Shown one piece after another: positions 96 to 49,489 of a DNA stretch of 49,490 nucleotides. This DNA comes from a virus, in IMG/VR virus record IMGVR_UViG_3300022932_000014, positions 93,638 through 143,127 of that record. One strand, given 5' to 3'. The translations under genes and the position numbers were made by a program. The notes beneath the pieces were generated by a model. That model was not told where the DNA came from. It saw nothing but the letters and a program-made list of their open reading frames with translations, and ran no database searches. Each line of letters opens with the position of its first letter. Positions within the stretch are counted from its first letter, which is position 1.

Positions 96-161
96 TAACT
101 GTTTCAAGGAAGATTTGTTTTTTATTTCTTTTTCCGCGAAATTTAATAAAAATATAGAATT

Positions 162-491
162 ATGCAGAAAGAAACTATAATAATTGACACCATATCTTTA
201 AAGGAAGACACTCTTTTCGGCGAAATAAATCAAGTTATTAGTTATCTAAATAGTATAAAGTCTCGGTATAAAAATGGAGAAAGTATTTATTTAAATCAAG
301 AGTGGTCTGGCTATGAAGACAATTATTTTGAAATTGTAGTTGAGAGACAAGAAACTGATGAAGAGTGTTTAGCGAGAGAAGAAGAAGCCGAACGTGAAAA
401 AAGACGGGGAGAAAAAAGAAAGGAAGCCGAAGAATGTAAAAGAAAAAAGGGTATTCAACAAAAGATAGATGAATTAAAGAAACAATTATGA
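162..491 (+). CDS. hypothetical protein with charged coiled-coil C-terminus
   Basis: ORF after promoter; ATGA overlap with next gene. Confidence 0.75.
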   Translation: MQKETIIIDTISLKEDTLFGEINQVISYLNSIKSRYKNGESIYLNQEWSGYEDNYFEIVVERQETDEECLAREEEAEREKRRGEKRKEAEECKRKKGIQQKIDELKKQL

Positions 492-47600: not shown

Positions 47601-49489
47601 TCTTTTAGTGGGATATCTTGTCCCCCTTTGTCATTTATTCTTCCTGTAACTCTTTGTCCGTTATTTAAATCAATTTCAAAGGTATTGTTTGAATTAATAA
47701 TCATATTGGAACTAGGGAAAAAACTTGCTAAAGTTTCTACTCTGATATGACTAAATCTTATATTTTGATTTTTAATTGTAGCTAAAGCATTTGTAGGGGT
47801 TTGTAAACCTCTCACAGAAGCCCCTAAAGAATTTGCTTGTTCATCTATAGCATCAACAACAGATTTATAGTCTCTATCTATTAATTCAGTTTTAGTTGTA
47901 TCTCTAACAGCTTGTGTTTGAAGACTGTCAATTAAGTCTAACATTTCCGCAACACTTTGCTCATCATTTGAAACTGTTCCTTCTAGTGTTAGCCAATCAT
48001 TTAATCTTGTTTGTAAAACTTTAAGTTGATCTATCTCAGGTATTGTTAATCCTAAGTTTTTATAGAAATTTGACGGTCTGCTTATAATTCTATCTGTATT
48101 TGGCTCTACTCTTCTATCAATTTTAGAAAGTAATTCTTCATAAGTTCTTATATCTGATTCTGAAGGTTTTGTTTTCCCTTGTTCGGCCAGATCTGTTCCA
48201 AAATATTGAGTTAAATAATCATTTGAACCAATTATTTCAGCAATTTTATTTTGTAACTGTTGTAAAGTAGTTAGATTTGTAACTGGTGTAACTTCTACAT
48301 TATTTGGAATAGTGGCTACTGCATTATCTTCAATTTCTTTTTGATATGCATCATAAATAGCCTGATCAGCTGAGGGCAATTGAATTCCTTTTCTTACTTC
48401 TTCCCCTAACTGTTGTTTATAAGCTTCTGAAACAGGTTCTCCATTCTCAAATGCTCTTCTTTCTATTAGATTCTGATTTTCCTGAAAAACTACCACTGTA
48501 TCTGTTTTCCACTTTTCTAAAATATCTGTGAAATATGAAGCAGTTGATTCATTAAGTTTAGTATTTTTATTCAGTAATTTACTAACCCATCCATTAATAA
48601 CTTTTACTCTGGTGTTTGGATTTACAATCGCTTGAGTAGTTTTCTGATAATTTTTAATGTGGTCTACAGCTTTTGATTGTGCCTGTAAAGCTTTTTGAAT
48701 TTCAAAGAATTTTTCTGGATCTGATAATTTTATATCTGCTAAAGTTGCTCTTAATTTATCTAAATTTTCATTTTGAGTGGTGAACATATCAACAGTTATA
48801 CTTGCATCTGTATAATTTCTTATACCTATTGCATCTAAAGCTAATTGTTTTTCCGTTTGAGCTTGTGTTCTTTCTTCTTGTATTGCTGTAATCTCCTTAT
48901 TGATGTCAATTAAAGCGTTTGCGCGTGCTTTGTTATCTTCTGTATCTGTTAACTTACTTGCTTCAAATTGTCTGTTTAAAACTTCTTTTTCGCGACGATC
49001 TAAAGATTGTAAATGTAAATCTAATTGAGATATTTTTAGAGTTTTTTCTTTTGGCGCTAAATCTAAAACTTGTTGTACATCTAAAGCTTCTGTAATGCTT
49101 TCTACATTAACTGAATCAGCCACTAAAGATTTAACGTGAGAAATTAAATTTTGATTTATACGCATAGCAGTTTCGCCCATAGTCATACTATAAGCCATTG
49201 CTCTTACTACCTCTCTTGTAGAAGTTTTATCTAATCCTGCGATTTCTGTTTCACCTAATAAAGCTTGAGAATAATTTAAATTCTTTTGATGTTTATCTGA
49301 AATTTCTTTATACTCAGCTATTTTTTGTTCTTTAAATACCTGAGCTTGTTCTTCGGCTTCTTGGCCTGTACCTAATCCTAATTCTTTAGCTAATTCGTCA
49401 TTTTTAACAGCATTTATTTGACGTTGAAAATCAAAAAAGCCTTCCTGTACGCTACTTATAGCTTGATTACGTTCTATGTGAGCTATGGC
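44600..49489 (-). CDS. giant putative virion/ejection protein, 5'-truncated by window (>1629 aa)
   Basis: ORF track 44600-49198; frame read by hand stays open for 97 more codons to the window edge; no catalytic motif recognised. Confidence 0.75.
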   Translation of the reverse strand, partial: AIAHIERNQAISSVQEGFFDFQRQINAVKNDELAKELGLGTGQEAEEQAQVFKEQKIAEYKEISDKHQKNLNYSQALLGETEIAGLDKTSTREVVRAMAYSMTMGETAMRINQNLISHVKSLVADSVNVESITEALDVQQVLDLAPKEKTLKISQLDLHLQSLDRREKEVLNRQFEASKLTDTEDNKARANALIDINKEITAIQEERTQAQTEKQLALDAIGIRNYTDASITVDMFTTQNENLDKLRATLADIKLSDPEKFFEIQKALQAQSKAVDHIKNYQKTTQAIVNPNTRVKVINGWVSKLLNKNTKLNESTASYFTDILEKWKTDTVVVFQENQNLIERRAFENGEPVSEAYKQQLGEEVRKGIQLPSADQAIYDAYQKEIEDNAVATIPNNVEVTPVTNLTTLQQLQNKIAEIIGSNDYLTQYFGTDLAEQGKTKPSESDIRTYEELLSKIDRRVEPNTDRIISRPSNFYKNLGLTIPEIDQLKVLQTRLNDWLTLEGTVSNDEQSVAEMLDLIDSLQTQAVRDTTKTELIDRDYKSVVDAIDEQANSLGASVRGLQTPTNALATIKNQNIRFSHIRVETLASFFPSSNMIINSNNTFEIDLNNGQRVTGRINDKGGQDIPLKEWLAVAPQSSVLIKNFGTNSSAISQLLGLDSQGNEIYQNVPSDFDYRQTDGTNYSVDEEAVNTVKNGDTLDLFVSSTDAFNDSLTSKELAKQIHIYVMKNGKLLGSLPAPYDKESTEGIGIPLSELRQSAAEFTKGKKGLIKLPQKMTAKITFIGAPQITLQKSGEETVTRNNPFTKESLQNVVGQGFIENGQVTSTIKIDVNQFINKISASNKDAKIPFIAFNYNGKVVGFPVSLNSVTVDMSQSVLDIFNSTEATTAIKAKTLIDALIQNGLDPQSYGIDFTDKENWIDSQETSNALSDLSKIKQFVDVEQFATKNYNKENLINDATIAIRLDNSPFQTSKIMLSMSNKIDSDVLGYKEFLQANEAREIEIRSELNTVAKELYSAYINNSELDNNFTQTFDENPILPGDSDILMRQNINTLKTAIKGASQKTKKEIGVDLFKKANELLNELNYSTNKSKDIKEQIKNSEYYQDADPNFITVDEQGNLENPFINETEAIQELGGIKTEEEFNEALAASDLDYLKTDTALFEEMSEFNNVAVKEETEEGIQDKINTDVQDTLEATLREPTNDGLQTSLSNIEGYTPEVWNSSPEAIKTLLRDIEKQAIDVNVDLTGLAESYETKTQEEVLDVTRALDFMLNNPTPDSLNHFINTYQDFTNVVDTIEREVVKVEPRYRDLPLISLDTTSSEYKAFKDNGLLKIQENVYIKTDGNTKTLEEVEDLMSTNLDVFPENTIQGDVNNKSIVLEDLNSYVESQMADVLTNDSEFDVDTVKKLIYYKTYFGIENKEVPTVSQEKIVDISALNISNSEYLTTDYIAEVRNQQLREVHPVLQNLVFNQKGITLRYTDEISVAEMNDYLKDNEDLRNYFLLSKNTNFNVELEASEDEITAQNMRDYYANGGTLEVYKNGYTKINNETIQTKTTEDFISINGDVYERTADELFSKLTKIDVNFYELNIEAPILNVDPNQYPSINSVSEVETKNILTKAEQNNFDENIDCSK

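Follow-up and report, generated by a model that had tools for sequence, protein, structure and literature searches.

A C/G-core motif in an uncultured phage

The window analysed here (49,490 nucleotides in all) spans bases 93638-143127 of a 143,127-bp IMG/VR record, IMGVR_UViG_3300022932_000014 (30% G+C), i.e. the final third of a phage genome that we refer to as G0. Scattered along it are copies of a short DNA motif in which a core of C and G bases lies between a T tract and an A tract, and it is this motif that we describe. Our gene map of G0 is based on open reading frames (ORFs); it is crude and overlooks small ORFs. A structural block on the minus strand (1.9-53.2 kb; portal, terminase and large virion proteins) is followed by a plus-strand early block of 178 mostly small genes (53.4-125.0 kb), which encodes ribonucleotide reductase, a DnaB-type helicase, DNA polymerase and an exonuclease. 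The remaining minus-strand arm (125-143 kb) carries an RNA ligase, a Thg1-like enzyme, an HNH endonuclease and virion proteins of 2102 and 1532 amino acids. The closest cultured relatives are the Cellulophaga phages phi17:2 and phi4:1 (genus Lightbulbvirus), with ∼ 30% amino acid identity in the 2102-residue protein, to which an epsilon crAss-like phage is a weaker match. The motif-bearing phages are a group of uncultured ∼ 140-kb phages of Bacteroidota, a host phylum that we infer from the similarity to Flavobacterium and Cellulophaga phages and from host-type promoters.

Exactly 17 strict TTT[GC]5-6AAA sites are present in the window (Table 1), where Markov models of order 1 and 3 predict 0.43 and 0.84 respectively, and never more than 3-4 in 100 runs. 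The mirror image, AAA[GC]5-6TTT, does not occur. An initial annotation of the window, made from the sequence alone, had listed the same 17 positions, had noticed no mirror sites and had estimated fewer than one strict site per window; our searches and simulations bear out all three, and its ten quoted example sequences were all found. Relaxing the pattern to TT-S5-6-AA (S, C or G) gives 28 sites in the window and a single mirror site. The second element mentioned in the annotation, (C/T)TGTTTT, was confirmed, with a sharply defined position: on one side of the core CTGT begins 19 nt before the first base, and on the other the complement, ACAG, ends 17-19 nt past the last one. The pooled logo, tCTGTTTTTwwTTCTTTTT-[C/G]5-AAA, is asymmetric and ∼ 30 bp long, with two T tracts ∼ 10 nt apart and a slightly asymmetric core of 5-6 C/G bases containing CG. 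The cores are degenerate. CCGCG, CCGCC, CGGCG, CGCCG and GCGCG are the commonest of more than 20 different C/G words, and the most frequent, CCGCG, accounts for 24 of 170. That every core contains CG is weak evidence, because 26 of the 32 possible C/G 5-mers contain it.

Copies were counted with a 32-nt position weight matrix (PWM), the threshold of which was calibrated on Markov-3 simulations to give at most 0.5 hits per simulated genome; an iteration at low threshold was discarded, as its hits came to reflect the T-rich antisense strand of coding DNA. The matrix yields 59 hits in G0 (19 on the plus and 40 on the minus strand), equal to 24 distinct copies in the window, and the excess over Markov models is 20-40 fold. 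As the initial annotation had proposed, the motif is written through coding sequence: the interiors of genes in three genomes hold 6, 16 and 6 copies compared with 1.1, 1.2 and 0.3 in synonymous-codon shuffles, an enrichment (6-20 fold) that holds in each genome, and in-gene cores occupy all three reading frames. The copies resemble one another at the consensus level only, unlike the products of recent transposition. The motif is a selected DNA-level signal rather than a composition effect.

Distribution among genomes and placement at gene starts

All 59 PWM hits in G0 fall at 54.8-138 kb, and none of its 25 strict sites lies in the first 54 kb. Contrary to the initial annotation, the signal is thus not genome-wide, since the structural block has neither a strict site nor a PWM hit. 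The late blocks of relatives have no copy either. Within the early block the median spacing of copies is ∼ 0.9 kb. Six metagenomic genomes or contigs carry 27-80 PWM hits each, and their TT-S5-6-AA sites outnumber the mirror sites 49:8, 70:6, 32:2, 39:4, 28:2 and 45:2, i.e. mirrors are 6-22 fold rarer. Between these six, 13 of 15 pairs can be aligned over 1-17% of their DNA; one further pair reaches 49% and another does not align. The densest load was seen in G008 (L179-L182), a 66.7-kb contig with 80 PWM hits (> 1 per kb).

The phage phi17:2, which is similar in size and G+C content, has no TT-S5-6-AA site and no PWM hit. No motif excess was found in phi14:2 (the genome of which lacks TT-S5-AA sites altogether), in crAssE-Sib or in contig G004, a more distant metagenomic relative with 54% DNA polymerase identity. 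The initial annotation had considered that the motif might be equally common in the host chromosome as a compositional feature. Three Bacteroidota chromosomes, which may not represent the true host of the phage, show no such excess: the asymmetry is just 1.2-1.5-fold at ∼ 20 sites/Mb, compared with 18:1 and ∼ 126 sites/Mb in the phage. A 27-nt pattern scan of bacterial genomes returned scattered single hits only, besides one metagenome-assembled genome (MAG) of Candidatus Peribacteria (candidate phyla radiation, CPR), in which four contigs (L060, L077, L094 and L117) match. These matches are probably compositional, because the ratio of TT-S5-AA to mirror sites over the whole MAG is merely 2:1 and the core words are different.

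The copies are closely associated with gene boundaries. For their orientation we use F type where the T-rich arm lies upstream in the sense of the gene, and R type where the A-rich arm and AAAACAG lie downstream in sense. Although only ∼ 7% of the genome is intergenic, 18 of 49 relaxed sites are found there, and among G0 spacers of 25 nt or more, copies are present in 19 of 53 (35%) in the early block and in 1 of 21 elsewhere. We also tested the association independently of gene calls, by looking 3-36 nt downstream of each copy for an ATG that starts a frame of 40 codons or more. Such an ATG was found in sense for 56 of 155 copies from three genomes; the same test in antisense gave 1 of 155, and nearby control positions gave 18%. 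The start codon typically follows the copy by 5-9 or 20-30 nt, and R-type copies show a sharp peak of the ATG distance at 25 ± 1 nt. Often the spacer is filled exactly, by a stop codon, TT, the core, the A-rich arm ending in AAAACAG, ∼ 5 nt and the ATG, an arrangement that produces this peak; in an alternative layout the ATG stands directly after the A tract, at 5-9 nt.

Beside genes, 18 copies are of F type and 23 of R type, which agrees with the orientation independence described in the initial annotation. Away from gene starts the numbers are 24 F and 73 R, with the A-rich arm on the coding strand, and on the minus-strand arm of G0 the orientation of the motif flips with gene direction. It is therefore set by what the A-rich coding strand and the likewise A-rich initiation region can accommodate, not by the absolute strand or a direction of action, and orientation appears irrelevant to function. 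Mapped for strand and spacing, the motif has no absolute strand bias; the spacing itself reveals a strong tie to gene starts in one block and not an even spread along the genome.

A putative regulatory site and the alternatives

Complementarity between the two arms of the same site (6.7 of 20 positions) does not exceed that between arms of different sites (7.4), so that a hairpin is not selected. This rules out a cruciform, an N4-type hairpin promoter or an intrinsic terminator, the last of which the initial annotation had already discounted. Terminator-like hairpins are not enriched (4 compared with 5.1 in shuffles), and the whole window gives no Rfam match at gathering score. A reading as a host-type or sigma-70 promoter was likewise rejected. 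The logo lacks the host TTTG (-33) and TAnnTTTG (-7) boxes. Canonical TTTG-N17-21-TAnnTTTG promoters are found among the late genes, where the early block begins and at a few positions inside it, and are scarce within the 71 kb of the early block; only 11 of 155 copies have one within 150 nt, at scattered offsets both upstream and downstream. Matches to sigma-70-type promoters are at shuffle level. Judged by eye, the -35/-10 geometry of extracytoplasmic function (ECF) sigma factors does not fit either: the spacers are 12-15 nt instead of 16-17 nt, and no sigma factor was found encoded. Sigma70_r2, Sigma70_r4_2 and T7-type RNA_pol have no match in the phage, although the RNA_pol control matched nowhere and divergent factors could escape. 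There is no DFDxD polymerase motif in any frame, and a crAss-type virion RNA polymerase was not found, the large virion proteins having no sequence match to the solved crAss-like polymerase. The earlier statement that the motif is not a promoter is therefore upheld for promoters of the host type; the link to gene boundaries means that a promoter-associated role is not to be dismissed.

Our leading, if tentative, interpretation is that the motif is the orientation-independent double-stranded DNA site of a putative protein that would control early and middle gene expression; we infer both the protein binding and the transcriptional output. The motif fits a double-stranded binding site because it is selected and orientation-independent, forms no hairpin, has phased T tracts and a degenerate core, is confined to one temporal block and is packed into spacers before start codons. 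Control of transcription is suggested because the copies sit in spacers between early and middle genes and are absent from the structural block. A clade-specific candidate protein, encoded by the phage itself or supplied by the host and redirected, would recognize the motif by reading the two helically phased T tracts and the 5-6 bp C/G core followed by the A tract. The site might then act as an operator for shut-off, as an activator site or as an upstream (UP-like) element for host RNA polymerase, perhaps in a redirected form. The gene-boundary link (35% of spacers; 56 of 155 compared with 1 of 155) points to expression control rather than to packaging, genome organization or uptake-like handling. 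The initial annotation had argued for a binding or handling site; a selected, orientation-free site at the DNA level is indeed what we find, whereas the tie of the copies to gene starts and to a single temporal block favours control of transcription.

Several observations count against such a regulator site. For about half of the copies the nearest called gene start is > 100 nt away, although the gene calls are crude and overlook small ORFs. There is no fixed spacing between the motif and host-type promoters, unlike in a classical operator. A binding protein was not found: phylogenetic profiling for a cognate factor gave ∼ 15 clade-specific proteins without family assignment, and the small early proteins that are conserved in the clade and specific to it could be placed in no family. 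Clade-specific early proteins are encoded at genome positions 54531-54806, 62168-62614, 77159-77509, 81288-81485, 86413-86706 and 90725-91135. The HNH endonuclease, the sole annotated protein of interest, was rejected as the cognate factor, being multi-copy and homing-like and not a dedicated single-copy enzyme. Conservation of single copies is also limited. Only 2 of 11 orthologue pairs between G0 and its relative G001 keep a copy above the PWM threshold, which indicates fast turnover, and per-position identity is only slightly higher in the motif (0.83) than in the flanks (0.78).

The early block is mostly unalignable between relatives, and nucleotide footprinting of G0 against G001 failed for most copies for this reason. 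Roughly half of the orthologous genes keep a core at a similar upstream distance despite unrelated surrounding DNA. A pooled footprint of six genomes gave a signal that was only weak; in it, 22 of 40 alignable sites retain an above-threshold score at ∼ 78% flank identity. Whether orthologous positions preserve the motif, a question raised in the initial annotation, thus has a divided answer: these alignable sites and one in-gene copy kept through a synonymous GCG-to-GCC change speak for it, the orthologue pairs against it. From this pattern we conclude that the clade as a whole maintains a population of motif copies, of which the individual members turn over.

It is unlikely that the copies are themselves a non-canonical class of early/middle promoters, at which host RNA polymerase, redirected by a phage factor or modified by an ADP-ribosyltransferase (ART), starts in the A tract after the core. 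Such promoters would account for copies 5-9 or 20-30 nt upstream of start codons, for their occurrence every ∼ 0.9 kb in the early block and absence from the late block with its host-type promoters, and for the small number of canonical promoters across the 71 kb of the former. In T4, the Alt protein favours the early promoters, and the ART-PolyVal domain of the 2102-residue virion protein may, by analogy, point to a comparable redirection of the polymerase. However, an asymmetric motif that points both ways beside genes (18:23) is unexpected for a directional promoter, which would be possible if only the near-symmetric core matters; moreover, no sigma factor and no T7-like or DFDxD-type polymerase was found, there are no -7/-33 boxes at a fixed distance, and many copies lie inside genes. 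A non-transcriptional signal for DNA handling (sites for a site-specific nicking or homing enzyme, pause or grip points while the genome is ejected stepwise, recombination hot spots at which gene cassettes are shuffled, or sites for a nucleoid-type or decoy protein) we judge improbable to the same degree. Its orientation independence, its presence in coding sequence and phased T tracts that predict bent DNA would suit such a role, as would the quick turnover of the copies and their location where the genome varies most and is rich in ORFans. The early block also adjoins the predicted physical genome end, as placed from the terminal repeats of G001, and the major nicks of T5 have a GC-rich consensus, R/GCGCRGG (PMC3517423). 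On the other hand, the phage nick sites known so far are confined to one strand (PMC3517423), whereas the motif uses both and takes its orientation from the direction of the local genes. Nor are copies closer to breakpoints than gene starts are: 14 of 52 are found 40 nt or less from a boundary of the G0/G001 alignment, compared with 4.8 for random positions and 13.2 for random gene starts. A handling signal does not predict the tight link to start codons, and the HNH endonuclease is multi-copy and homing-like. Somewhat less probable again is that the motif has no part in transcription but is an orientation-free handling mark, carried by the ∼ 70-85 kb that enter first and recognized by a protein that is delivered with the virion or made very early. 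Ejection in stages might, for example, depend on it, as might the protection or compaction of the early region or its nicking or modification at specific sites; the motif would then be a phage counterpart, written through coding sequence, of uptake-signal-like 'self' marks.

We think it quite improbable that the motif acts in mRNA, as an intercistronic element read by a phage RNase or translational regulator in the manner of T4 RegB or RegA targets. Many copies do occupy the 5′ leader that separates a stop codon from the following ATG, two or three are downstream of host-type promoters and would be transcribed, the R-type copies keep their sharp 25-nt distance from the ATG, and F- and R-type transcripts would be mutually complementary. 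Yet the two orientations are unrelated as RNA sequences and are equally common beside genes, and neither a selected secondary structure nor an Rfam match in the window was found. Absence of any function, the motif being a by-product of composition or codon usage or a decaying selfish repeat, is the least probable reading and is already largely refuted by the controls. An A-rich coding and T-rich antisense strand does favour T and A tracts, and an over-permissive PWM drifts there. This is outweighed by the 20-40 fold excess over Markov models and 6-20 fold excess over codon shuffles, by mirror sites that are 6-22 fold rarer, by the absence of copies from the 54-kb structural block of G0 and from related phages of similar G+C content, and by a likeness between copies that does not go beyond the consensus, as it would after recent transposition.

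T4 early and MotA-box middle promoters are elements of the -35/-10 type with a fixed direction, which sigma-70 polymerase uses alone or together with MotA/AsiA. Like these promoters and the promoter early stem-loop (PeSL) cassettes, the motif occurs in dozens of phage-specific copies, in early/middle regions only, before small ORFan genes and with turnover that accompanies gene content. It differs from them in that it has no host promoter boxes, occurs in either orientation and carries a degenerate C/G core between T and A tracts. As for cassette junctions, which T4-type PeSL would mark, copies showed no more association with them than gene starts do (14 compared with 13.2). The crAss-like Cellulophaga phage phi14:2, a distant relative with the same inferred host phylum, also has a conserved intergenic motif of one temporal class. 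That motif belongs to middle/late genes and is tripartite, -35/-10-like, used by host polymerase and placed in the sense direction, and the early transcripts share no common motif (bioRxiv 10.1101/2020.03.07.982082); the phi14:2 genome has no TT-S5-AA site. The archaeal halovirus HF2 carries intergenic repeats with AT-rich promoter boxes (PMC8707807), a case of dispersed ∼ 30-60 bp repeats in a large virus genome that were found to be regulatory, which is an analogy of kind only. Pasteurellaceae uptake sequences, to which the initial annotation had compared the motif, share a GC-containing core beside helically phased T tracts, both orientations and tolerance in coding sequence. They have a single fixed core, are spread chromosome-wide in a competent bacterium and function in DNA import, whereas the motif has a degenerate core (> 20 words), is limited to one phage gene block and is tied to gene starts; the comparison holds for orientation and phased tracts, not for an invariant core or an even chromosome-wide spread, and is an analogy only. 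Nick sites of T5, phiKMV-like phages and tf are also short phage-specific consensus sequences repeated along the genome, GC-rich within an AT-rich genome in the case of T5 (PMC3517423). Those described number from a handful to 14 per genome and lie on one strand (PMC3517423); the motif is found on both strands, in 50-80 copies tied to gene boundaries.

We found no description of the motif in the literature searched. Regulatory repeats that are specific to a phage and mark a single temporal class are already known; this motif is set apart by its architecture, its indifference to orientation and its restriction to an uncultured clade. Orientation independence and persistence in coding sequence are unusual for a promoter-type element. 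Large Bacteroidota phages are abundant and their gene-expression programmes almost unknown, with no early-gene signal found for phi14:2, the best-studied relative. The signal described here is sharply defined and searchable, and marks the early/middle block of a whole clade. It could be used to delimit temporal modules, to call small genes and to recognize clade members in metagenomes, and a ∼ 30-bp oligonucleotide would provide a handle for fishing out the regulator. There is a modest chance of something less ordinary: a non-transcriptional role, if true, would make the motif a new kind of phage DNA mark.

Motif copies and neighbouring features in the window

Table 1. Motif copies, strict cores and selected neighbouring features, in window coordinates.
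Feature	Position	Strand	Details
Strict sites (17), first core base	134, 218, 4955, 7831, 10032, 10894, 12291, 14687, 17060, 20000, 20648, 23045, 29716, 30859, 36274, 36999, 43356		
Host-type promoter	64-95		upstream of copy 112..143; TTTG...TAATTTTG; promoter regular expression
Copy	112..143	+	F type; core CCGCG 134-138; ATG 24 nt past core; PWM 32.1 bits
Strict core TTTCGGCGAAA	215..225	.	within gene; no scoring arm
Copy	4933..4964	.	both arms (CTGTTTT ... AAACAG); core GCGCG 4955-4959; PWM 27.1 and 24.4 bits, both strands
Strict cores	7828, 30856, 36271		among the 17; 7828 and 30856 likewise without scoring arm
Copy	10011..10042	.	PWM on both strands; core CGCGCG; helicase stop 9 nt upstream; ATG 24 nt downstream
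Gene-free island	10850-11730		880 bp; G+C-richer stretch ∼ 11120-11400
Copy	10872..10903	+	F type; entrance of gene-free island, followed by promoter-like TTTG-N19-TATATTTA
Copy, weaker	11453..11484	+	in gene-free island; core GGCGG; more core-like sites at 11525, 11575
Copy	12286..12317	-	R type; core GCCGC immediately past stop codon
Copy	14401..14432	-	R type; ATG 26 nt past core
Copy	14682..14713	-	within gene (codons TTC GCG GAA)
Copy	15169..15200	-	R type; fills spacer: stop codon, TT, CGGCG, A-rich arm, AAAACAG, ATG at +22
Copy	16280..16311	-	R type; ATG 18 nt past core; core similarly placed upstream of G001 orthologue
Copy	16556..16587	-	R type; ATG 8 nt past core, arm thus within first codons
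Copy	17055..17086	-	48 nt upstream of DNA polymerase gene; upstream copy also in G002 orthologue, not in G001
Copy	19978..20009	+	F type; top score in window; TATATTTG box ∼ 35 nt upstream; ATG 25 nt past core
Copy	20626..20657	+	F type; 3′ part of gene; next ATG 70 nt on
Copy	23024..23055	.	PWM on both strands; conserved in G001, core TCGCGG to TGCGG
Copy	23397..23428	-	R type; last codons of gene; next ATG 41 nt on
Copy	23607..23638	-	within gene; kept in contig G006
Copy	25661..25692	-	R type; ATG 25 nt past core; lost in aligned G001
Copy	27429..27460	-	R type; overlaps stop codon; ATG 20 nt past core
Terminator-like hairpin	29664-29685		part of compact junction 29664-29757
Copy	29694..29725	+	F type; between terminator-like hairpin and host-type promoter
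Host-type promoter	29726-29757		TTTG at 29726 ... TAGATTTG
Thg1-like tRNA-His guanylyltransferase and RNA ligase	34455-36244	-	side by side
Copy	36269..36300	-	upstream of minus-strand RNA ligase gene, F type relative to gene; ATG 30 nt past core
Copy	36994..37025	-	upstream of small minus-strand gene; ATG 6 nt past core
HNH endonuclease	37356-38132	-	phrog_953; no Pfam recognition
Virion structural protein, 2102 residues	38251-44559	-	phrog_37651; ART-PolyVal domain at residues ∼ 100-173
Copy	43334..43365	+	within 2102-residue protein gene; A-rich arm on coding strand; kept in G001 and G006 via synonymous GCG-to-GCC
Copy	44382..44413	+	within 2102-residue protein gene; kept in G006

The gene-free island lies between motif copies and behind the promoter-like sequence listed with its first copy (Table 1); it gave no Rfam family at gathering score. 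Outside the window, at genome positions 53687-53849 (L026:13687-13849), two tandem near-consensus Bacteroidota promoters, TTTGCATAT...TATATTTG and TAAGTTTG, head the plus-strand early block, and the first motif copies follow ∼ 0.6-1 kb farther downstream. The start codons of 518 early-block genes (loci L012-L023 and the window) are preceded by A-rich positions at -13 to -11 and -6 to -3. No Shine-Dalgarno signal was seen upstream of these genes, the pattern being Kozak-like as described for Bacteroidota, and these start contexts are consistent with the inferred host phylum.

Three genes of the minus-strand arm deserve mention. The HNH endonuclease is present in two copies each in G006 and G008, at different loci, and as a stop-codon-bearing remnant only in the motif-less G004; because of this we regard its behaviour as homing-like. 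The Thg1-like enzyme and the adjoining RNA ligase, with a motif copy at each intergenic entry, look like a putative RNA-repair module. The ART domain of the 2102-residue virion protein has weak similarity to the C-domain of diphtheria toxin, which suggests that this protein may be an injected host-modifying enzyme.

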